IMG/VR virus record: IMGVR_UViG_3300020198_000887
Coordinates: 1-64,000 of that record
DNA length: 64,000 nt
DNA from: a virus
Strand: one strand, 5' to 3'
Shown: one piece after another, positions 711 to 10,260 of the stretch
How the letters are laid out: each line of letters starts with the position of its first letter
Position numbering within the stretch: position 1 is the first letter of the stretch
Notes under the pieces: generated by a model
The model's database searches: none
What the model saw: the letters and a program-made list of their open reading frames with translations, nothing else
Told to the model about the DNA's origin: nothing
Made by a program: the position numbers and the translations under genes

Positions 711-1154
711 ATGTTAACAATTTATACCAATAATCAACAGCATACAACATATATAAAATTAACTGAAAAAATATCACAATTTGATAATGTTGGAATTTTA
801 TACTTGCACTTACCATTTTATGATGGTATAATAGATAAAATCAAACTAGATTACGATGTTCCATATAATGATGTTATATCAATAAATGAACATACGAAAA
901 ATTATAAAAGTTTACGGGATAAATTTAAGCGTGAACATTACCATAAAGATTTTGAAATGCGATATTTCACAAATGGGACTGCTACATTTTCAATAAGTAT
1001 TAATAATACGATCTTTGAACTTATAGTGGAACCAAATGATTTGATTTGTATACCACCCAATGTCAAGCATTGGTTCGATGCTGGGGATAATCCAAATTTT
1101 ACAGCAATACGATTTTTTACTGATAAAAATGGATGGGATGCAATTTATACTTGA
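711..1154 (+). CDS. mtnD: acireductone dioxygenase (ARD/MtnD-like cupin)
   Basis: EHYHKDFEMRYF (metal-binding EHxH..E), DLICIPPNVKHWFDAG and FTAIRFFTDKNGW match ARD cupin motifs. Confidence 0.8.
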   Translation: MLTIYTNNQQHTTYIKLTEKISQFDNVGILYLHLPFYDGIIDKIKLDYDVPYNDVISINEHTKNYKSLRDKFKREHYHKDFEMRYFTNGTATFSISINNTIFELIVEPNDLICIPPNVKHWFDAGDNPNFTAIRFFTDKNGWDAIYT

Positions 1155-1179
1155 CAGTTGACCACAGTTGGTATATAAT
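1151..1179 (+). promoter_or_regulatory. sigma70-type promoter for the RNA cluster
   Basis: TTGACA (1151-1156), 17-nt spacer, TATAAT (1174-1179). Confidence 0.8.
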
Positions 1180-1195
1180 ACATATATAGATTAAA

Positions 1196-1279
1196 AGGAT
1201 AGCTACAGCATCAACCAAATTACAGGTTCGATTCCAGTCCCTATAATGGGACTGCTTAACTGGTAAAGCATCTATCCTG
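1196..1279 (+). ncRNA. Y-RNA/YrlA-like RNA copy 1 (closing stem + CAGCA, reduced permuted tRNA module)
   Basis: AGGATAG pairs with CTATCCT; encloses T-loop GGTTCGATTCC, looped acceptor-like stem AGTCCC-TATAAT-GGGACT and D-arm GCTTAACTGGTAAAGC, in the order T, acceptor, D. Confidence 0.7.
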
Positions 1280-1334
1280 ATGAAGATTTATTGCGTTATG
1301 GCGATATGGAGAAATTGGTAAACTCAGCAGACTT

Positions 1335-2023
1335 ATGAAATTGAGCACACGTGATAGAAACACCCGGGTGAATGTACTTAAATTCGGTGAACTCTTAACA
1401 GGTAATGCTGATGACAATACCGAGCTAAATTTTGGATTGTATGTTACGACCTCTATATGTTGGGGTAAATGCATGACAGTTTGGACATAGTAATCGTAGA
1501 TTCGATAATTCATTATTTGTATTATCACCATCTATGTGATCTAATTCAAGCGAAATTGGTTTAGATAACCATTCGGATAAATTACAAGATGAACATATTG
1601 GGTTAAAAACCCCATTATTAAGTAATTTTATTTTTAATTTATATGAATGGATAGTTGAACCCTTTTGTAGATATTCTTCAATTGGTTTTGATCTTTCTGG
1701 AAATTTTCTTCCACCTAGATTCTGTCCAGTGAAATGACTAGTATCTAAATTAAAATGTTTTATAGCACGTTTCAATGTGGTATAATTCCCACCAGCTGGT
1801 GCAACATTTAATTTTTGTAATACTTGTCTTAAAGATACAGAAGTAACAACAGCGTTTTGTAAATCAGTTAACGTGTATTTAAATAGTTTCATAAAATAAT
1901 CCATTAGAAGTGTAGAGACTTAACAGGTACTACCTACGTTGTATTTATGCAATATGGTAAAGATAAAGTCCAGACCACAAACTATGTTTACTAAATATAG
2001 GTAGTGAAAACTATAGTGGTACG
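1335..2023 (+). mobile_element. group I intron in tRNA-Leu(UAA) after U34
   Basis: core elements AAATTCGGTGAA (P), CAATACCGAGC (Q), GTGTAGAGACT (R), AAGATAAAGTCC (S); 5' exon ends in U, intron ends in G. Confidence 0.9.
1425..1904 (-). CDS. HNH homing endonuclease, antisense within the intron
   Basis: CSSC...LELDHIDGDNTNNELSNLRLLCPNCH zinc-HNH motif; lies between intron Q and R elements. Confidence 0.88.
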   Translation of the reverse strand: MDYFMKLFKYTLTDLQNAVVTSVSLRQVLQKLNVAPAGGNYTTLKRAIKHFNLDTSHFTGQNLGGRKFPERSKPIEEYLQKGSTIHSYKLKIKLLNNGVFNPICSSCNLSEWLSKPISLELDHIDGDNTNNELSNLRLLCPNCHAFTPTYRGRNIQSKI

Positions 2024-2080
2024 AAAATCTGCCGTCGAAAGACTTCCCGGTTCGAGTCCGGGTATCGCTACCAAACAAAT

Positions 2081-2173
2081 GAAGAGTTGGGTGAGTGGTT
2101 AAAACCACCTTCCTGCTAAGAAGGCATACGGTTAAAAGCCGTATCGTGGGTTCAAACCCCACACTCTTCGCCA
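2081..2173 (+). tRNA. trnS: tRNA-Ser(GCU)
   Basis: GAAGAGT/ACTCTTC + GCCA; CCTTC-CTGCTAA-GAAGG; long variable arm. Confidence 0.92.
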
Positions 2174-2178
2174 AGTTT

Positions 2179-2233
2179 ATGATACATTTAGCAGTTTAAA
2201 AAACAAACTTAAAATTTGAAAAAACGTATCCTG
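2179..2233 (+). ncRNA. Y-RNA-like motif copy 2 (short, degenerate)
   Basis: ATGATACATTTAGCAG...CGTATCCTG, close to copy 3 ends (AGGATACATTCAGCAA...CGTATCCGG); A-rich interior. Confidence 0.5.
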
Positions 2234-2419
2234 TATAAATATTATATTCAACAACATATAGAATGGTATGAAATATACAAAGAAGTTGGGTTTGACGAGT
2301 TTGTAAGAAGAACTGGGTATAATTATTCAAAACCAAATTTAGTAACAGCATTTTCTAAATTAGTTCCGAATTTTATTCCACAAAACGGTAAGAAAAGATA
2401 TTCCCCTGTAGCTCAGTAG
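2216..2419 (+). pseudogene. ORF fragment, possibly the C-terminal remnant of an endonuclease-type gene
   Basis: protein-like 67-aa frame with no convincing start/RBS, running into tRNA-Asn. Confidence 0.3.
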
Positions 2420-2670
2420 GTAGAGCAGTTGACTGTCAAAAGGCAGCTTCTATTGGAAACAATAGTTGAAAAATCCATCAAATTCGGTGAAACCTAAAAT
2501 CGTATGAATATGGCAATACCGAGCCAAGCCTGGAAATAGGAAGGTGTAGAGACTAGACGGTGGAGACCTAAGTTCATAAGAATATGGTCGTGGTATAGTC
2601 CAGAGAGTAATGAAAATTGCACAAATCTGTAATCAATTGGTCGGCGGTTCGAGCCCGTCCGGGGGAGCCA
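2402..2670 (+). tRNA. trnN: tRNA-Asn(GUU), intron-containing; exons 2402-2436 and 2630-2670
   Basis: TCCCCTG/CGGGGGA + GCCA; spliced anticodon arm GTTGA-CTGT|TAA-TCAAT. Confidence 0.88.
2437..2629 (+). mobile_element. compact group I intron (193 nt, no ORF) between anticodon positions 35 and 36
   Basis: P1 CTGT|C-AAAA-GGCAG with U-G at the splice site; AAATTCGGTGAAACC, GGCAATACCGAGCC, GGTGTAGAGACT, GGTATAGTCC; terminal G. Confidence 0.88.
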
Positions 2671-2675
2671 AAATG

Positions 2676-2799
2676 CATAGCGTCGGCTTTACGCTATGGT
2701 AGGAAAGTGCCTACTGCTCAACGTATATGAGTATCTGCGAAGCAGAAACCTACGGGTTGCCTAACAAACTACAACTAGAGTTGTTATTCGAGTAACAAC
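2676..2799 (+). ncRNA. unidentified multi-hairpin structured RNA
   Basis: five abutting hairpins 2676-2758 plus a hairpin at 2780-2799. Confidence 0.45.
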
Positions 2800-2814
2800 A
2801 TAAGCAACTATTAT

Positions 2815-2891
2815 TGCGAGCTCGACTGTCTGGTGATGTCACCAGTTTCATAAGCTAGTTTAGGTCGGTCCGATTCCGGCACTCGTTTCCG
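2815..2891 (+). pseudogene. degenerate tRNA with CAU anticodon
   Basis: cloverleaf spacing with TTCATAA loop; mismatches in acceptor and anticodon stems, TCCGATT T-loop, no CCA. Confidence 0.6.
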
Positions 2892-2899
2892 GGTATTAC

Positions 2900-2965
2900 C
2901 GGAGATTAGACCAGTTTGGAAGGGCGATCCTATAGGTTATATGTTTTAAATCCTACCACTTCCGA
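2900..2965 (+). pseudogene. highly degenerate tRNA remnant (Pro-like body)
   Basis: CGGAGATTAGACCAGTTTGG...AAATCCTACCACTTCCGA resembles the 5' and 3' ends of a tRNA; middle is scrambled. Confidence 0.3.
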
Positions 2966-2992
2966 TGAGTTATACATATAAAAATTTAGCAT

Positions 2993-3069
2993 GGTCGGGT
3001 GACGGAATAGGCATACGTACAGATTTTAGATGTCTGGTGTTGGGAGTTCGATTCTCCCATCGACTACCA
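2993..3069 (+). tRNA. trnL: tRNA-Leu(UAG) with short variable loop
   Basis: Leu-type D arm ACGGAATAGGCATACGT; CAGAT-TTTAGAT-GTCTG; GGGAGTTCGATTCTCCC; ACCA end. Confidence 0.75.
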
Positions 3070-3197
3070 TATTAAAAAAATATTCATGGACCATGAATAG
3101 TGAGACAAATAATTTCTAACTACTTCATTGTGGTTTATATTTGGTACTGACCATGATTATGATTAATAAATATTAAAACATAAAATAAGGATGTATA

Positions 3198-3362
3198 ATG
3201 GCAGCAAGAAATGATGTAACTGGTGACCCTATTCAAACTAGGCCATCCTCTCAAGCATACCGTGACAATTGGGATGCTATTTTCGGTAAAAAGAAAGAAG
3301 ATAAAAAAGCGGTATCTGATACTTCACAAGAGAACAAATCTCTTGACAATAATAATAATTAA
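3198..3362 (+). CDS. small hypothetical phage protein (54 aa)
   Basis: AAGGA RBS; MAARNDVTGDPIQTRPSSQAYRDNWDAIFGKK; below the ORF-track cutoff. Confidence 0.7.
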   Translation: MAARNDVTGDPIQTRPSSQAYRDNWDAIFGKKKEDKKAVSDTSQENKSLDNNNN

Positions 3363-3371
3363 GGATATAAT

Positions 3372-3581
3372 ATGTCAACAGTTAGTAAATCAAGCAGACC
3401 ACGTAATGCACCTGGTAAAACACGTAATGGTAAAGTTAAAATTGTTTCACTTACATTATATCAACTACAAGAAATGATAGCAACTGTACATAGACCACGT
3501 GATAAATGTAAATATCAAAATTATATAAATGTTCTTATTAAAAAGGTAAATAAAAATGGCCGTAGAAATAATAAAATGTAG
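3372..3581 (+). CDS. small basic hypothetical protein
   Basis: AAGGA RBS; 69-aa ORF. Confidence 0.6.
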   Translation: MSTVSKSSRPRNAPGKTRNGKVKIVSLTLYQLQEMIATVHRPRDKCKYQNYINVLIKKVNKNGRRNNKM

Positions 3582-3708
3582 TTGTTCAGGCACACCAGCT
3601 GCTGAATTCCAAGACAAAACATATGGAAAAGGTATGCGAGTTATGAATTTAGATTTTAAAAAAGTAAACGCAACTTGTACAGTATGCGGTGCTAAACATA
3701 GGAATTAA
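3556..3708 (+). CDS. small zinc-ribbon protein (50 aa)
   Basis: MAVEIIKCSC...QDKTYGKGMRV...CTVCG; AAGGT RBS. Confidence 0.6.
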   Translation: MAVEIIKCSCSGTPAAEFQDKTYGKGMRVMNLDFKKVNATCTVCGAKHRN

Positions 3709-3716
3709 AGAATACA

Positions 3717-3792
3717 GCCCCTGTAGCTCAGTTGGTAGAGCGATTCACTTAAAGTGAGGATGATGTGGGTTCAAATCCTGTCGGGGGCCCCA
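3717..3792 (+). tRNA. tRNA with Thr-like class I body but anticodon loop CTTAAAG (UAA); function uncertain
   Basis: GCCCCTG/CGGGGGC + CCCA; canonical D and T arms; short variable loop. Confidence 0.65.
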
Positions 3793-3797
3793 ATTTT

Positions 3798-3909
3798 AGG
3801 ATACATTCAGCAAATCTAAAGCACCCTAGATGTCGTAGGTTCAAATCCTACATTCTCATAATGAGAATTAGCTCAGTTGGTAGAGCGCCAGGCTAAAAAC
3901 ACGTATCCG
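3798..3909 (+). ncRNA. Y-RNA/YrlA-like RNA copy 3 with a complete circularly permuted tRNA domain
   Basis: GGATAC/GTATCC closing stem + TTCAGCAA; CCTAG, ATGTC, T arm GTAGGTTCAAATCCTAC, ATTCTCA-TAA-TGAGAAT, TA, D arm GCTCAGTTGGTAGAGC, G, CCAGG. Confidence 0.82.
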
Positions 3910-3931
3910 GTTTTAATTACACGAGGCAAAC

Positions 3932-4207
3932 ATGACAACACAAGTAACAGCAAGACATATTTTAGTTGATACACTAGAAGAAGCGCAAGCATTAGCAAAA
4001 CAAATCAATGAAGGTTCAGATTTTGCACGATTGGCCAGACAACATTCAAAATGTCCTAGTGGAAAAAACGGTGGTGATTTGGGTACATTTGGCCGTGGAA
4101 TGATGGTTCAACCATTCGAAAATATTTCATTTGAACTAGAAATTGATGGGGTGAGTGACCCAGTACAAACACAGTTTGGGTATCACCTAATCAACAGAAC
4201 TGCATAA
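3932..4207 (+). CDS. ppiC: parvulin-type peptidyl-prolyl isomerase
   Basis: ARHILV, FARLARQHSKCPSGKNGGDLG, VQTQFGYHLI. Confidence 0.93.
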   Translation: MTTQVTARHILVDTLEEAQALAKQINEGSDFARLARQHSKCPSGKNGGDLGTFGRGMMVQPFENISFELEIDGVSDPVQTQFGYHLINRTA

Positions 4208-4208
4208 A

Positions 4209-4493
4209 ATGACATACCAAATTATTAACGAACGTGTTCTGGTTAAAAAACCAAACGACCCTAAAAAATCAGCATTTGGAATCATCATTGCCAATGACTC
4301 TTCTGAAAAAACTATTACTGGTGAAGTAATTGGAATTGGTGAAGGAAAACCATTGGAAAATGGTGATTATAGACCAATGACAGTTAAGGTGGGCGACAAA
4401 GTAATGCTACCGAACGGTATTGGGATTGAAGTAACGATTGATGAGCAAGAATGCATTGTTATTAAAGAAGATGATATTCTGTTAATAATGTAA
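4209..4493 (+). CDS. groES: co-chaperonin GroES
   Basis: ERVLVK...GIII...GEVIGIGEG...PMTVKVGDKV...IKEDDIL. Confidence 0.9.
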   Translation: MTYQIINERVLVKKPNDPKKSAFGIIIANDSSEKTITGEVIGIGEGKPLENGDYRPMTVKVGDKVMLPNGIGIEVTIDEQECIVIKEDDILLIM

Positions 4494-4500
4494 TGAAAAA

Positions 4501-4585
4501 GGGTTAGTTTCAGCAATATTATTGTACATGAAAAATACCAGACGCCAGGTAGGGAAATAAGCAATACCCAATGGCGACTAACCCG
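4501..4585 (+). ncRNA. Y-RNA-like motif copy 4
   Basis: GGGTTAGT/ACTAACCC stem, TTCAGCAA, internal CGCCA...TGGCG helix. Confidence 0.65.
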
Positions 4586-4592
4586 TATAAAT

Positions 4593-4677
4593 GCTGAAGT
4601 GACAGAATGGTTATGTACCGGTCTGCAAAACCGTAATTCCGAAAGGTAGTGTGGGTTCGTCCCAATCTTCAGCTCCA
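4593..4677 (+). tRNA. trnC: tRNA-Cys(GCA), atypical (long variable region, short T loop)
   Basis: GCTGAAG/CTTCAGC + TCCA (U73); loop CTGCAAA; extra CC-GAAA-GG arm. Confidence 0.7.
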
Positions 4678-4684
4678 TATTGTT

Positions 4685-4895
4685 AGGATGGGTTCCGCAA
4701 TAAAATTTAATTAATTCTATTAGTATAAATGCTACACTGGATGTATACAGTTATATGTAATGGATATTGCTAGAAAGAGTAACTAGATATGCTCCAATCT
4801 GAATATTGGATATTTCTTATAGAAATAAGATATGGTTGCGGATTATATCTGATGACAACCAGAAACAATAAAATACATCAAATCCGACCATCCCG
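4685..4895 (+). ncRNA. Y-RNA-like motif copy 5 with ~180-nt multi-hairpin insert
   Basis: GGATGG/CCATCC stem with GTTCCGCAA; internal hairpins such as TCCAAT/ATTGGA and TGGTTG/CAACCA. Confidence 0.55.
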
Positions 4896-4913
4896 TATAA
4901 CTTTTTTATTTTT

Positions 4914-5143
4914 ATGTCATATATAGTAGAATTACCACTTACCGCGAATATTGTCCAGAATGGTGGAAACAATTATGTTTAAAATATAATTCAATATCCG
5001 AAGATGAACTTTTAGAAGATACTATTCGTTCATATAGTATTGAAAATGGCGTAACTATACATCTTGATGAAGACCATGATGCAATTGAATACATTGAATT
5101 TAATAGTGAAGCACGATTTCAATGGTTTTTATTAAAGATATAA
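4914..5143 (+). pseudogene. probably frameshifted small phage gene
   Basis: ATG 4914 frame stops early; the -1 frame reads EYCPEWWKQL...EFNSEARFQWFLLKI* with no own start. Confidence 0.35.
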
Positions 5144-5171
5144 TTGACACCATTCCAAACTCTGCTTTAAT
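5144..5171 (+). promoter_or_regulatory. sigma70-type promoter of the TROVE-like gene
   Basis: TTGACA, 16-nt spacer, TG-N-TTTAAT. Confidence 0.55.
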
Positions 5172-5179
5172 ACAATTAT

Positions 5180-5219
5180 AGATTAGTAACAGCAATCAAG
5201 ATTACTACATACTAACCTG
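5180..5219 (+). promoter_or_regulatory. Y-RNA-like motif copy 6 in the 5' leader of the TROVE-like gene
   Basis: AGATTAGTA/TACTAACCT with ACAGCAA, ending 5 nt before the AGGAG RBS. Confidence 0.6.
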
Positions 5220-5234
5220 AAATAGGAGATATTC

Positions 5235-6746
5235 ATGACTACATTCGTAGAAGACGCACGAGAACAAGAATCACGCATATCAAATGGGGTGGCTGCTCAT
5301 AAGACCACTACCAATAAAGCAGTGGATTTATTCTTTAATATTGGTGCAAGTAGAGGAAAGGACATTATTCCAGCGTTTACCGCAGCATATGCGGAAAACA
5401 AAGATCTAGCACTTCGTATTGCATTATGGGCGCGTGATGCTCGAGGTGGTGCAGGTGAACGTAAATTGTTCAGAGATATTCTTGTGCATTTAGAAACTGT
5501 TGACACCGATGCTGCAAAAGCATTAATTAATAAAACAATATTGGTAGGAAGGTGGGATGACTTATTAGTGTTTAAGACACCGGAATTGCAACAAGTGGCT
5601 TTCACTAAAATTAAAAACACACTTGTTGCAGGAATACAAGCTAAATCATTATTAGATAGATTTGATGCAATGACTGAAGAAGAAACACTAAAACAAAAAC
5701 TTCAATCACAAATATTCGAAGCAAAATTAGTTGCAAAATGGATGCCTCGTGAAAACTCGGCAAAAAGAAAAATTGCTCAAAAATTAATTAAATTTTTTGG
5801 ATGGTCGCCAAAATATTATCGTAAAACATTGGTTTCATTGACTTCGGTGGTTGAAAACAAAATGTGTGCGAATGATTGGGATAATATTAACTTCAGTCAT
5901 GTTCCATCTTTAGCTAGCTCACGTTATAAAAAAGCGTTTAATCGTCATACACCAAAATTTGCTGAATATGTACAATCATTGATCAACGGTGAACCAACTG
6001 TCAAAGTCAATGCTGGTGCAGTATACCCATATGATATTATTAAAGGAATTGGTATATATGGGTATGATAAAACTGAAAATGCCCATATCGTTGCACAATG
6101 GGATTCTCTTCCAAATTATGTAGGTGATGCTAATATTTTACCTTTGGTTGATGTTAGTGGGTCTATGCAGTGTAGAGCTGGTGGTAATAAATCCAACTCA
6201 GATGTCACGTGTATGGATGTAGCAGTATCCTTGGGGTTATATATAGCTAATAAAAATTCTGGTAAATTTAAAGATACCTTTATCACGTTTAGTGAAACCC
6301 CTGAATTGCGCACATTGCGTGGTAATATTGTGGAAAAAGCAACACAAATGATTGCCTCAAATTGGGGTATGGGAACTAATTTACACGCTGCATTTGACTT
6401 GATTTTAGACGTAGCAACCAAGTTTGATGTTCCACAAAGTGAAATGCCAGAAATGCTACTTATTCTGACGGATATGCAATTTAATTGCTGCACACATTAT
6501 GATGATAGTGCAATTAAAATGATTGAACGTAAGTATACCGCAGCTGGTTATAACACCCCGTTGGTTGTATTTTGGAATATCAATTCATCTGATAACGTCC
6601 CAGTGAAAGCAGACAAATCAGGTGCAGCATTGGTTTCAGGGTTTAGTTCTGCTATCGTTAAATCATTATTGGCAGCTGATATGGGTAATTTCACACCAGA
6701 AGGCATTTGTCTTAACACAGTAATGATTGATAGATATACTATTTAA
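5235..6746 (+). CDS. TROVE/Ro60-like protein with C-terminal vWA domain (DUF2828-type)
   Basis: helical N-terminal region (RDARGGAGER, GRWDDL, AKWMPRE); MIDAS DVSGSM, GTNL, LTDMQF, VFWNI, LVSGFS. Confidence 0.82.
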   Translation: MTTFVEDAREQESRISNGVAAHKTTTNKAVDLFFNIGASRGKDIIPAFTAAYAENKDLALRIALWARDARGGAGERKLFRDILVHLETVDTDAAKALINKTILVGRWDDLLVFKTPELQQVAFTKIKNTLVAGIQAKSLLDRFDAMTEEETLKQKLQSQIFEAKLVAKWMPRENSAKRKIAQKLIKFFGWSPKYYRKTLVSLTSVVENKMCANDWDNINFSHVPSLASSRYKKAFNRHTPKFAEYVQSLINGEPTVKVNAGAVYPYDIIKGIGIYGYDKTENAHIVAQWDSLPNYVGDANILPLVDVSGSMQCRAGGNKSNSDVTCMDVAVSLGLYIANKNSGKFKDTFITFSETPELRTLRGNIVEKATQMIASNWGMGTNLHAAFDLILDVATKFDVPQSEMPEMLLILTDMQFNCCTHYDDSAIKMIERKYTAAGYNTPLVVFWNINSSDNVPVKADKSGAALVSGFSSAIVKSLLAADMGNFTPEGICLNTVMIDRYTI

Positions 6747-6831: not shown

Positions 6832-6862
6832 ACCTTATACCTTCATGGTATAGGGTTTTTTG
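6832..6862 (+). terminator. intrinsic terminator
   Basis: ACCTTATACC-TTCAT-GGTATAGGGT followed by T-run. Confidence 0.7.
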
Positions 6863-6962: not shown

Positions 6963-7508
6963 GTGAAAACATTTATAACAGCGGATTTACATTTCAATCA
7001 CGCAAATATTATGAAATATAGTCCGAAGTATAGACAATTTGATAATGTTGACCATATGAACAGTGAAATTATTAATGTTTGGAATTCAACAGTTGAATCA
7101 GAAGATGTTGTTTACATTTTAGGTGATGTTGCATTTTGTGAAGCGAGTATGGCCGCTAAATTTTTACAACAATTAAATGGTAAAAAGATATTAGTAGAAG
7201 GGAATCACGATCATAAACTAGTAAAGAATACATTTTTTAGGAACCAATTTGAAGAAATACACAAATATCTTGAAATAGTATATAATGGGTATAAAATATG
7301 TATGTTTCATTACCCGATTTCAGAATGGAACCAATGTCACCGAGGTTCTATAATGTTACACGGCCATTTGCATGGTAATGTCAGTGGGTTAGAGCATATT
7401 CGAGTTCGAGACGTTGGGTTTGATGCAACTGGTAACGTTGTTTCTTTACTAGATGATATTATTGAAGATGCACTAACAAGTGATATTAGACTACACGGAT
7501 GGAGATAA
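6963..7508 (+). CDS. calcineurin-like metallophosphoesterase
   Basis: ADLHFNH, LGD, GNHD, HYP, LHGHLH. Confidence 0.88.
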   Translation: MKTFITADLHFNHANIMKYSPKYRQFDNVDHMNSEIINVWNSTVESEDVVYILGDVAFCEASMAAKFLQQLNGKKILVEGNHDHKLVKNTFFRNQFEEIHKYLEIVYNGYKICMFHYPISEWNQCHRGSIMLHGHLHGNVSGLEHIRVRDVGFDATGNVVSLLDDIIEDALTSDIRLHGWR

Positions 7509-8014
7509 TGGATATAATTGAAAAAGCACGAATATTTGCAACGGCAGCACATAGCGCGGTAGGACAGAAGCGCAAGTATACCAATGAGCCATATATCGTT
7601 CACCCAACGGAGGTCGCACATATTGTCCGTGGGATATCAGGTAGTACTATTGAAATGATTTCGGCTGCGTATCTTCATGATGTACTAGAAGATACTAATG
7701 TGCCAATTGGTACCTTGCGGGAAGAATTCGGTGATGAAATTACTGAATTAGTTATATGGTTAACTGATGTAAGTAAACCTGGTGATGGCAATCGTGCTAC
7801 TAGAAAGGCCATCGATGTAGCACATATCAAACACGCACCACCAAATGCAAAAACTATAAAACTTGCTGACATTATATCGAATGTACAAAGCATAGTTGAG
7901 CATGATCCAGATTTTGCTACGATATATATTGACGAGAAGAAAGCACAGTTAGCTGTATTAACAGAAGGCCATCCAGTATTATATAACCTAGCAAAGGCGT
8001 TAATTGATTATTAA
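7508..8014 (+). CDS. HD-domain hydrolase, SpoT/Mesh1-like (p)ppGpp hydrolase family
   Basis: AH..QKRK...PYIVHP, LHDVLEDT, EEFG, LTD, IKLADIISN. Confidence 0.85.
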   Translation: MDIIEKARIFATAAHSAVGQKRKYTNEPYIVHPTEVAHIVRGISGSTIEMISAAYLHDVLEDTNVPIGTLREEFGDEITELVIWLTDVSKPGDGNRATRKAIDVAHIKHAPPNAKTIKLADIISNVQSIVEHDPDFATIYIDEKKAQLAVLTEGHPVLYNLAKALIDY

Positions 8015-8094: not shown

Positions 8095-10260
8095 ATGTCG
8101 CTACGATTAAGACGAGGCACAAATGCCGAAAGATTATCAGCAACAATTGATTCAGGTGAATTAGTATATGTAACTGATACTAATAAACTATATATTGGTG
8201 ATGGACAAAGTCCAAACCATGGGGTAAACATTTTATCAACATCTGCTGGTATTGGGTTATCATGGAATGACACAACCCAAAAAATTGACCTGAGTTCAGC
8301 AACCATGACTACTGCAAATATTGCTGAATTTGGGAATTTATATTTTACTGCAGAACGGGCGCAAGATGCAATATCGACCCTATTTTCACATAATTCACAT
8401 AATGGCATAACATTTCAATATGATGATTTGAATAATAAAATTAATGCAACTGTGGTACCATTGTTACCTTCCAATAGTGTTGGGTTTTTATACAACACCG
8501 GTAATGGTACATTATCTTGGAATACTACCAACTTTGCATTACAAAACATAGCAGAAGATACTACACCTATGTTAGGTGGGTCATTAAATTTGAATGGCAA
8601 TGATATTATCGGATATGGTGATATTACTATTACCGGAAAAATTGAGTTAGATGGCACTGTGCAGGGTAATATAATACCTAATATTTCATCGGTGTATACA
8701 TTAGGAAACATCAATTATCGCTTGAGCCAAGCATATATCAACACCGTTTACATTGGAAATGAAAATATTTCAAATGATGGTGGGCTAACTATCAGTTCAG
8801 TAACGAATCCAAATGTTTATATTAATAATGTCGGACCGGCACCAGCTAGCTTACGTCTCAGGAAAGCAAAGGGGGCTGTTGGTGATTTACAAACAGTTGC
8901 AGTAAATGACACAATATATGAAATTAAATGGGATGCATATACTACTGATAATGGTTACTTACCAGTGGCTGGAATTGTTGCGAAAGTAACAAACCCCCCT
9001 ACTACGACAGTTGTCCCAACAAAACTTGATTTCTATACAACTGACATTGATGGCAGTAATACGGTAAAAGTATCAATTTTATCTAATGGGCGCTTATCTG
9101 TAATAAATGGGTTGACAACGCATGGGTTAACGTTGGAATATGATACATTATCAGCTAATAATGTAAGTGGATTTGTCCGAATTAATGGTAAGTTGAGTGT
9201 TTCGCAGGACATAGTTGTATTAGGTGATATTCAAGACGCATTTGGCAGATCTCTTATATCTACCCCATTGACTAACCATTTTTATGTAAATCCACAAATG
9301 CCAGGAACATATACCCCTGATGGCAGTATTCAAAAACCATTTTTAACAATCGCCGACGCGCAATTCGCCGCAACACAACTTATTGTTGATGAAGTAATCG
9401 CGCCGTCTGAAGGAAATCCAATTTTTATTGTGTTGCAAGGAAATGTTGTAGAAGATGTAATTTTAGATCATGGGCATATTTTCTTAATCGGGCAATACGG
9501 TGGAATTCATGCACCCATTTACATTTATGGAACTATTACCATAAATGGGTCTGATACAACGGTAAATTCATACGAACTTAATCAATTCAGTATCCAAGGT
9601 GTTTCGGTAGTTTCACCGGACCAGCACGCAAGCATTTACTTTACTGGGGCTAACCCACAACAATTAATGTTAAAAGATGTATGGTTATCCGCGAGTGGCA
9701 ATCAAACCGGGACAGTTCCGTTTACAGATGCTGGTGGTTATAGCATATATTCCGACAACACTGGTATACGATTGAGTGATAACACGCGGTCAACCATTCA
9801 CGGCTCGGATATTAAGTTTAGTCATTCAGGAGCAGGTGATGTATATTGCATTAACATGCTACATGGGGTTTGTGAATTAAGTCACGTCGAAACTAGTAAT
9901 ATTACCCAATTTGGTGCAGTTAAGTCCGGGGCAGCACTTACTTTGCAAAACTCAACCATTATTGGGAATGGGGAGAGTGTGATTGAAGCCTATGGAACTG
10001 GGGTTCTAACATTGACTTCATGCCTACTTGTGAATACTCAACCTAATTCAAATGGGATTAAATTAAATAGCGGCACATCCACTGTTATTATTGGTAACTG
10101 TACGTTCAATATACCGGCGGGTAGTGGAAAAGCGGTGTATAATATCACATCTGGTGGGGCGTTATTCCACTCAGGTAGTATGTTTATGCCTAATTCAAAT
10201 AATAAAATAACAAGTACTATTTTGGCAACTGAATTAGTGACAATATTTGATAATACATAA
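8095..10260 (+). CDS. tail fiber/spike-like virion protein
   Basis: N-terminal LRLRRGT...GELVYVTDTNKLYIGDG fiber motif; DGSIQKPFLTIADA; beta-helix-like C-terminus. Confidence 0.75.
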   Translation: MSLRLRRGTNAERLSATIDSGELVYVTDTNKLYIGDGQSPNHGVNILSTSAGIGLSWNDTTQKIDLSSATMTTANIAEFGNLYFTAERAQDAISTLFSHNSHNGITFQYDDLNNKINATVVPLLPSNSVGFLYNTGNGTLSWNTTNFALQNIAEDTTPMLGGSLNLNGNDIIGYGDITITGKIELDGTVQGNIIPNISSVYTLGNINYRLSQAYINTVYIGNENISNDGGLTISSVTNPNVYINNVGPAPASLRLRKAKGAVGDLQTVAVNDTIYEIKWDAYTTDNGYLPVAGIVAKVTNPPTTTVVPTKLDFYTTDIDGSNTVKVSILSNGRLSVINGLTTHGLTLEYDTLSANNVSGFVRINGKLSVSQDIVVLGDIQDAFGRSLISTPLTNHFYVNPQMPGTYTPDGSIQKPFLTIADAQFAATQLIVDEVIAPSEGNPIFIVLQGNVVEDVILDHGHIFLIGQYGGIHAPIYIYGTITINGSDTTVNSYELNQFSIQGVSVVSPDQHASIYFTGANPQQLMLKDVWLSASGNQTGTVPFTDAGGYSIYSDNTGIRLSDNTRSTIHGSDIKFSHSGAGDVYCINMLHGVCELSHVETSNITQFGAVKSGAALTLQNSTIIGNGESVIEAYGTGVLTLTSCLLVNTQPNSNGIKLNSGTSTVIIGNCTFNIPAGSGKAVYNITSGGALFHSGSMFMPNSNNKITSTILATELVTIFDNT

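Follow-up and report, generated by a model that had tools for sequence, protein, structure and literature searches.

Six RNA Elements Closed by a Common Handle

The first 64 kb (64,000 nucleotides, nt; the window) of the 142-kb IMG/VR virus record IMGVR_UViG_3300020198_000887, which begins at window position 1, carry six small elements at 1196–5219 on the plus strand, 16 to about 4040 nt 5' of a gene on the same strand for a 503-amino-acid protein (5235–6746). The elements belong to an RNA family whose closing stem covaries in related phages and which accompanies the same gene in distant ones, and the protein is predicted to share the architecture of Ro60, which binds Y RNAs. The RNAs are likely to be the partners of this protein, which would bind them through a common handle formed at their ends.

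Each element is 40–211 nt long and consists of a 7-nt 5' arm, three bases, a CAGCA(A)-type motif, a cargo of 18–190 nt, a complementary 3' arm and a G. An earlier note on this DNA had described six elements of this build, with compensatory changes in the stem and a different cargo in each; all six were found at the positions first given, one of them (E2) degenerate, and the cargos also held. E1 (1196–1279, +) pairs AGGATAG with CTATCCT in seven Watson–Crick pairs, has CAGCAT as its motif and encloses a minimal permuted tRNA-like cargo; it scored 22.1 bits with R1, a covariance model built from the leaders of lake phages alone. E2 (2179–2233, +), directly 3' of tRNA-Ser, has ATGATAC/GTATCCT, the motif TAGCAG and an A-rich loop as cargo (R1 21.8 bits, E 0.06). 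E3 (3798–3910, +), also directly 3' of a tRNA, has AGGATAC/GTATCCG with six pairs, CAGCAA and a YrlA-like, permuted tRNA-like cargo. E4 (4501–4585, +) has GGGTTAG/CTAACCC with seven pairs, the first of which, G–C, is a compensatory change, together with CAGCAA and one imperfect helix as cargo (fold z −3.0). E5 (4685–4895, +), directly 3' of the tRNA at 4593–4674, has AGGATGG/CCATCCC with six pairs, CCGCAA and a cargo of about 190 nt, and E6 (5180–5219, +), in the 5' untranslated region (UTR) of the protein gene, which belongs to the DUF2828 family, has AGATTAG/CTAACCT, CAGCAA and a short loop (R1 36.5 bits).

The closing stem was formed in all six elements on folding, and cargo structure was clear for E1, E3 and E4 (z about −3). 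Three copies (E3, E4 and E6) have CAGCAA without any change, and two (E1 and E6) have the exact AG...CUG ends. The outermost pair alone is lost in E3 and E5, and pair 3 of E6 is an A·C mismatch. Pair 2 of E2 is a U·C mismatch where the other five copies in the window have G–C; because of this mismatch and the motif TAGCAG, E2 is probably a degenerate, decaying copy. A canonical 54-nt element with a size and stem similar to those of E2 is present in a related locus (L010).

The 5' pattern occurs eight times in the window versus 1.28 expected. Since the pattern was derived from the same six copies, this statistic is circular, and proof was therefore sought in relatives. Six is a minimum for this phage, because the record begins at window position 1 and close relatives have as many as 12 copies. 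Outside the window, a 48-nt candidate at G000:C1:71404-71451 (GGAATAG-GAGC-CAGCAT...GTATTCCG), with a 4-nt linker and six of seven pairs, may be a chance match.

Covariation of the Handle in Close Relatives

Close relatives were collected as 80 IMG/VR contigs with protein homologues of 59–72% identity. They were found with an alignment query, unlike a single-protein scan of IMG/VR, which gave no match, and megablast of the region against phage records gave none. In these 80 related loci, a specific scan returned 357 elements on the gene strand versus 44 on the opposite strand, and 296 elements in the 341 kb upstream of the gene versus 36 in the 404 kb downstream. Loose scans for the stem plus motif produced noise that was equal on both strands and were excluded as evidence. 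The consensus comprises a U-rich lead-in, A-G-(G/A)-(A/U)-U-N-N, N-N-A, CAGCAA, the cargo, an A-rich stretch, N-N-A-(U/A)-(C/U)-C-U, G and U-U.

Directly upstream of the start codon, nearly all loci show an element whose arms differ yet stay complementary. Among 38 distinct leaders, this stem is 99.2% paired, with double changes in five of the seven pairs, versus 24–40% pairing in slid controls. An unbiased pairing test was made with the pattern AGGATNNNNACAGCAAN{18,48}ATCCTG, which leaves two stem positions and their partners free. Both free positions were complementary in 64 of 78 distinct IMG/VR matches versus 14% expected (p = 4e-41), and each position showed four pair types. Covariation in homologues, on which the earlier note had made its RNA family depend, was strong in the leader stem, in the pattern test and in the alignment of the E3 class (see below). 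On this sequence evidence, the handle RNA family is real.

Arms that form short inverted repeats around variable inserts, together with the many chance matches of the loose scans on both strands, could also be read as a selfish short repeat, like the terminal inverted repeats of miniature inverted-repeat transposable elements (MITEs), or as chance similarity with no RNA function. Such an origin is extremely improbable, given that the elements show an eight-fold strand bias, that their changes are compensatory, and that an asymmetric motif is kept from Gram-positive to cyanobacterial phages.

Predicted Ro60 Architecture of the Protein

The 503-residue protein combines a DUF2828 helical-repeat ring part with a DUF7788 vWA domain. 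Pfam scored 154.7 bits for DUF7788 (PF25043, cut-off 27.1) and 75.2 bits for DUF2828 (PF11443, cut-off 29), and the protein family comprises 5,843 representative clusters at E ≤ 0.001. PDB searches with sequence profiles yielded a Ro60 match that was not significant (E ~0.06) and lay in the vWA part only.

The structure was modeled with AlphaFold2 from a 149-sequence alignment, with a predicted local distance difference test score (pLDDT) of 92.2 and a predicted template modeling score (pTM) of 0.91. A first model from 27 close sequences had a pLDDT of 57 and was discarded. Using the predicted model, the 12 best Foldseek rows were all Ro60/TROVE entries (1yvr, E 3.9e-9). VIA-align superimposed it on Xenopus Ro60 (2i91_A) with a Z of 20.9 and a root-mean-square deviation of 3.9 Å over 412 residues, and the ten best chains were all Ro60/TROVE. 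Z was 16.4 for the Ro60 of Thermus phage phiLo and 13.8 for Deinococcus Rsr, while matches to the vWA domain only reached at most Z 12.7 and 170 residues. The metal-ion-dependent adhesion site (MIDAS) motif is intact, with D306, S308 and S310 invariant.

The comparison of 5235–6746 with Ro60, as proposed in the earlier note, thus returned the toroid fold over the full length. Its claim of a TROVE/Ro60-like gene stood for the fold, a full Ro60 ring plus vWA domain in the predicted model, but not for the TROVE sequence signature, which was undetected. The protein is therefore predicted to have the Ro60 architecture without the Ro60 sequence signature.

The window protein has 503 residues versus about 470 in its closest homologues, and many matches align in two stretches that omit residues ~131–164. 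Since the homologue alignments skip these residues, they suggest a lineage-specific insertion in the helical ring.

Linkage of the Handle to the Gene Across Phages

The protein was found by tblastn in 710 of 50,697 phage records, where depositors often label it "RNA-binding" or "Ro-like". Seven distant examples, with protein identity of 30–43%, were compared. In six of them, 2–4 perfect elements (7-bp stem, NNA, CAGCAA ... stem, G) adjoin the gene on the same strand. The carriers are Synechococcus phage BUCT-ZZ01, Listeria phage AG20, Campylobacter phage CPX, Mycobacterium phage Whirlwind, Staphylococcus phage S-CoN_Ph10 and the E. coli phage HY02 (Felix O1-like). The outer stem is lineage-specific (AGGAU, AGACC, UGGAC, AAGNC and others), and NNA-CAGCAA is identical in all six.

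Model R1 found the distant-phage elements at 22–35 bits, and all 12 matches with E ≤ 1 in 128 kb were on the gene strand. When five complete phage genomes were searched genome-wide, 10 of 11 matches fell within ~10 kb of the gene and on its strand. Two tRNA-rich phages without the gene were also searched with R1, with one match at E 0.98 in T4 and none in T5. The T5 record (NC_005859.1, 30284-30644) lists, within the tRNA cluster, three "stable RNAs with unknown functions", of which one is tRNA-like. They belong to a different family, since T5 has no DUF2828 gene and R1 finds no element in it.

A reverse search seeded by the RNA pattern only yielded 80 loci, with the free stem positions paired in 64 and unpaired in 16. 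The gene was recovered for 35 of the 64 stem-paired matches (23 within the locus, all on the same strand, and 12 elsewhere in the record) and for none of the 16 unpaired ones. Fisher's test gave p = 5e-4 at the record level, for those assessed, and 4e-3 at the locus level; records without the gene were mostly small fragments. The earlier note had expected a covariance-model search of phage genomes to show co-occurrence with DUF2828/TROVE genes. This was seen for DUF2828 genes in six distant lineages and from the RNA side as well, so the motif is not distributed independently of the gene. Because the same handle stands beside the gene in very different phages, the RNAs are most likely the protein's partners.

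A different reader of the handle was also considered, either another RNA-binding protein of host or phage or a processing nuclease that trims or stabilizes the tRNA operon, with the Ro60-like gene as a mere functional neighbor. The handle flanks are U-rich (UUUU before, UU after), as for cleavage sites, and the elements often lie directly 3' of tRNAs. In addition, the Class I RNAs of Dictyostelium, which have the same signature (see below), are reported to bind the RNA recognition motif (RRM) protein Rnp1A directly, so another protein could read the phage handle. However, the Staphylococcus and Mycobacterium phages have the handle beside the gene with no tRNA cluster adjacent, and the tRNA-rich T4 and T5 lack it. 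In 69 of 80 loci, a handle copy forms part of the leader of the gene itself, which is classic for a protein that binds its own mRNA. A separate reader is accordingly judged unlikely, and the Ro60-like protein is kept as the probable partner.

Cargo RNAs

The 231 distinct upstream elements in the relatives vary widely in size: 90 are ≤70 nt, 51 are 71–135 nt, 43 are 136–200 nt and 47 are longer. A T-loop motif is present in 39 of them, 27 of which are in the 71–135-nt class. In the window, the E1 cargo contains, as judged from fold and motifs, the T-loop GGTTCGATTCC, a capped hairpin and a D arm, and the E3 cargo contains a T arm, an acceptor stem capped by a 3-nt loop and a D arm. RNAalifold of E3 with 21 homologues, including the Whirlwind element, returned the handle, the T arm, the loop-capped acceptor hairpin and the D arm, with 15 of 20 pairs compensated. 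The YrlA-type tRNA-like domain was thus found in E3 and E1 and not in E2, E4, E5 or E6. By sequence and folding, the E1 and E3 cargos are YrlA-like permuted tRNA mimics.

Comparison with the Rfam YrlA model (RF02553), which had been suggested at the outset, gave 36.5 bits for E3 (E 2.8e-5), 19.9 bits for E1 (E 1.8) and 38.3 bits for the Whirlwind element. The two tRNA-like copies were matched, but below the gathering score of 69, and the Rfam alignment leaves the phage outer stem unpaired. In the 194–262-nt class of relatives (E5 type), only the handle aligns and no consensus structure was found beyond it; in a mixed set of short tRNA-like elements, the consensus was the handle alone.

The relatives join handle and tRNA body in three ways. 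Two genes of BUCT-ZZ01 have a tRNA shape, a normal acceptor stem and CCA, and in them the handle, a GUAA-capped hairpin followed by AUU-CUGCAA, takes the place of the anticodon arm. In the related locus L074, the handle stands in place of the acceptor stem, and the D arm, anticodon arm and T arm are otherwise native. The same RNA-gene cluster of BUCT-ZZ01 (ON615601.1) holds a permuted tmRNA gene (L089 737-1137; Rfam tmRNA_permuted, 111.9 bits), about 4 kb upstream of its Ro60-like gene.

These tRNA bodies raise the alternative that the elements are split or permuted tRNA genes and their relics, with the handle as a splicing or ligation signal resembling a bulge-helix-bulge and working tRNAs as products. 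As in the permuted and split tRNA genes of Cyanidioschyzon merolae and Nanoarchaeum, the order of the tRNA body is permuted in E1 and E3 and a terminal helix closes the RNA. The handle hairpin sits at the anticodon-loop place in the CCA-ended genes of BUCT-ZZ01, and Listeria phage AG20 has RtcB and RNA-ligase genes close to its Ro60-like gene. Unlike those tRNA genes, the phage elements have no bulge-helix-bulge. The E3 acceptor stem carries its 3-nt loop cap and joining of the ends restores no anticodon. Most members have no tRNA body (T-loop motif in 39 of 231, with 90 of 231 at ≤70 nt), one handle copy is an mRNA leader, and neither RtcB nor an Rnl2-type ligase was found in the 142-kb record, which is ~37% of the genome by CheckV. 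A tRNA-maturation function is therefore very unlikely. The cargos are better read as modules carried by a Ro60-like protein.

The Leader Copy and Its Position

Elements end 11–28 nt 5' of the ATG in 69 of the 80 related loci. In the window, E6 ends at 5219, the Shine–Dalgarno sequence AGGAG occupies 5224–5228, beginning 4 nt past the final G of the handle, and the ATG is at 5235. A promoter-like pair of hexamers, TTGACA/16 nt/TTTAAT (5144–5171, +), was identified by eye and was not called by the promoter rule used for the E1 site; transcription from it would begin at roughly the first base of E6. Consensus promoters occupy the equivalent leader position in several relatives.

A site in a gene's own leader is the classic layout for a protein that binds its own mRNA. 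Since a 55-kDa protein on the leader handle would cover the ribosome-binding site, the position of E6 suggests translational autoregulation by the bound protein. The arrangement resembles the leaders of ribosomal-protein operons, which are autoregulatory target mimics, in that the presumed RNA site of the protein lies in its own leader beside the Shine–Dalgarno sequence. It differs from them in that regulation in the phage is read from position only.

Comparison with Ro60/Y RNAs

Ro60 binds Y RNAs through a stem of their 5' and 3' ends beside a bulge that bears a motif, and one protein can have several Y RNA partners (PMC4201824; PMC12135203). In a survey restricted to genomes with an annotated TROVE protein, Chen et al. 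2014 located YrlA RNAs close to Ro60 in 254 bacteria and 22 phages (PMC4201824). In Thermus phage phiLo, Ro60 binds two upstream Y-like RNAs (Yrl1 and Yrl2) with a stem and a CGAA bulge, and recruits the host PNPase (PMC12135203). A jumbo-phage review mentions ROT/TROVE proteins with a tRNA-like partner in passing. The literature naming "DUF2828" concerned plants or a tardigrade only, and none of the families in Rfam 15 matches the handle. The earlier note's statement that RNA partners are undefined for this divergent family agrees with a limited literature search, in which no defining paper was found. Within these searches, no description was found of the CAGCAA handle or of its association with DUF2828 proteins.

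The phage system would work like Ro60 with Y RNAs, as described for YrlA/YrlB of Salmonella and a mycobacteriophage, Yrn1 of Deinococcus and phiLo. Both have a protein with a helical-repeat ring and a vWA domain (predicted for the phage), RNAs closed by a 5'/3' stem beside an unpaired conserved motif, RNA genes that share the strand of the protein gene and lie at most a few kb from it, and at least one RNA with a tRNA mimic (T arm, capped acceptor stem, D arm). Several RNAs per protein are proposed for the phage case too. Unlike Ro60/Y RNA, the phage protein matches Pfam DUF2828/DUF7788 with no detectable TROVE signature, the YrlA score is low against the gathering score, one handle copy lies in the 5' UTR of the gene itself, and handle and tRNA body are joined in more than one way.

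Several observations weigh against a Ro60/Y-RNA-type particle. The Pfam TROVE model (PF05731) was unmatched at E ≤ 1 in the protein and in the whole 142-kb record, in which no TROVE gene and no RNA-repair gene were found. The phage handle is NNA-CAGCAA on a 7-bp stem, versus the canonical GNCGAAN(0-1)G or CGAA bulge. No clear handle is present beside the gene in Vibrio phage K491, and KVP40 has the gene yet only one weak R1 match, 7 kb upstream on the same strand. One 75%-complete record with a stem-paired match and no gene is a true exception in the reverse search. The look-alike Class I RNA is reported to be bound directly by an RRM protein. The public runs containing the phage are all lake or freshwater DNA metagenomes, with no RNA run listed. 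With these points included, a particle of this type is still considered likely, given the linkage across phages and the predicted fold.

Resemblance to Dictyostelium Class I RNAs

A close likeness to the phage handle was seen in the Dictyostelium Class I RNAs (RF01414; Aspegren et al. 2004; Kjellin et al. 2021, PMC7919456). These are 42–65 nt long and have a short covarying 5'/3' stem, an adjacent 11-nt motif ending in ACAGCAA and a variable remainder. They start with (A)AG and end with CUGU, and their published signature is GTTGRCCTTACAGCAA ... GTCAACTG (PMC5054030). They have their own Dictyostelium upstream sequence element (DUSE) promoter, and are reported to be unique to Dictyostelia and to be bound directly by Rnp1A. 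The phage consensus A-G-N5, NNA, CAGCAA ... N5-C-U-G-U is the same signature. Unlike the eukaryotic Class I RNAs, the phage elements are 40–211 nt long and lie in a phage tRNA operon.

RF01414 gave noise only on the phage's own genome, where none of the six elements was matched. In four of five other phage genomes, its best match was a handle element at 20–26 bits, and handle elements overall scored 15–26 bits versus a gathering score of 41.5. These scores point to a resemblance and not to membership.

Genomic Context

The phage has a G+C content of 35% and is present in lake-water metagenomes. CheckV estimates the completeness of the record at 37%, so that 142 kb implies a very large phage. 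The region 1150–5230 (+) is a tRNA cluster with tRNAs, a group I intron and small open reading frames (ORFs), followed by the 503-codon gene. A sigma-70-type promoter-like site, TTGACA/17 nt/TATAAT, matches the consensus at 12 of 12 positions directly 5' of E1 (1151–1179, +), and an intrinsic-terminator-like hairpin with a T run lies 3' of the Ro60-like gene (6832–6856, +). The neighboring genes code for an ARD/cupin-like protein (696–1154), a parvulin-type peptidyl-prolyl isomerase (PPIase; 3932–4207), a GroES-like Cpn10 (4209–4493), an HD-domain protein (7499–8014) and a 721-amino-acid protein with an Mtd_N (tropism determinant) N-terminus (8095–10260).

Several tRNA genes of the cluster are unusual. 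At 2402–2670, a group I intron interrupts a tRNA gene (Rfam Intron_gpI, 59.5 bits at 2420–2622), with the CCA end of the 3' exon at ~2670. It is followed by about 140 nt of non-coding sequence (2671–2814) before tRNA-Met, with several hairpins and no Rfam match. A second tRNA gene appears to be split at 1307–2064, with its 5' half at ~1307–1345 (anticodon loop CUUAUGA, UAU) and a 3' half that ends ...GGTATCGCTACCA at 2064. The ~680 nt between the halves include an HNH-endonuclease-like ORF on the minus strand (1425–1904; weak Pfam HNH_3, E 1.7e-4), and Rfam calls no intron there. The tRNA at 4593–4674 (Rfam 39 bits), with the anticodon loop CUGCAAA (GCA) and a long extra arm, was missed by ARAGORN. 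ARAGORN called the tRNA at 3717–3792 Phe(aaa), yet the Rfam alignment places UAA in its anticodon.

Proposed Particle and Significance

The six elements would be small non-coding RNA genes, cotranscribed with the tRNA cluster, whose products have a docking handle in common. This handle would consist of a 7-bp helix of the RNA ends (5' A-G-N5, 3' N5-C-U), an unpaired NNA-CAGCAA in the 5' strand, an A-rich 3' strand and the final G, and it would be the binding site of the divergent Ro60-like ring and vWA protein encoded at 5235–6746. One protein could then carry several RNAs with different cargos, two of which in this phage would be tRNA mimics of the YrlA kind, and surplus protein on the leader copy beside the ribosome-binding site would shut off its own translation. 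Comparative evidence supports the core idea of the earlier note, one protein that docks on a constant handle of several RNAs, and none of its refuting conditions that could be examined by computation spoke against it. The cargos may serve as tRNA decoys or enzyme tethers, as it had proposed. We infer binding, autoregulation and cellular role alike from these arrangements. The role is probably RNA surveillance or control of tRNA damage during infection, as suggested by the analogy with Ro60 (Rsr)/Y RNA, the tRNA-gene surroundings, and the RNA-ligase genes beside the gene in Listeria phage AG20.

A recognizable handle would assign partner RNAs to the widespread DUF2828/DUF7788 protein and add a second recognition code beside the classical Ro60/Y-RNA code. 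It would also turn many "spacers" of phage tRNA clusters into annotated genes. The cargos include tRNAs in permuted order, tRNA bodies that lack the acceptor stem, and complete tRNAs in which the handle replaces the anticodon loop. They point to a function centered on tRNAs during infection, possibly directed against tRNA-cutting nucleases of the host.

The resemblance to Class I RNAs is, in addition, a lead on an old orphan RNA class. The DUF2828 family includes eukaryotic members in the protein atlas. It is doubtful that the phage CAGCAA-handle RNAs belong to a single family with the Class I RNAs of social amoebae, with the DUF2828 Ro60-like ring as the cognate protein of both. If they did, they would represent a second ribonucleoprotein lineage, parallel to Ro60, across viruses and eukaryotes, and the amoebal RNAs, unexplained since 2004, would gain a molecular partner.

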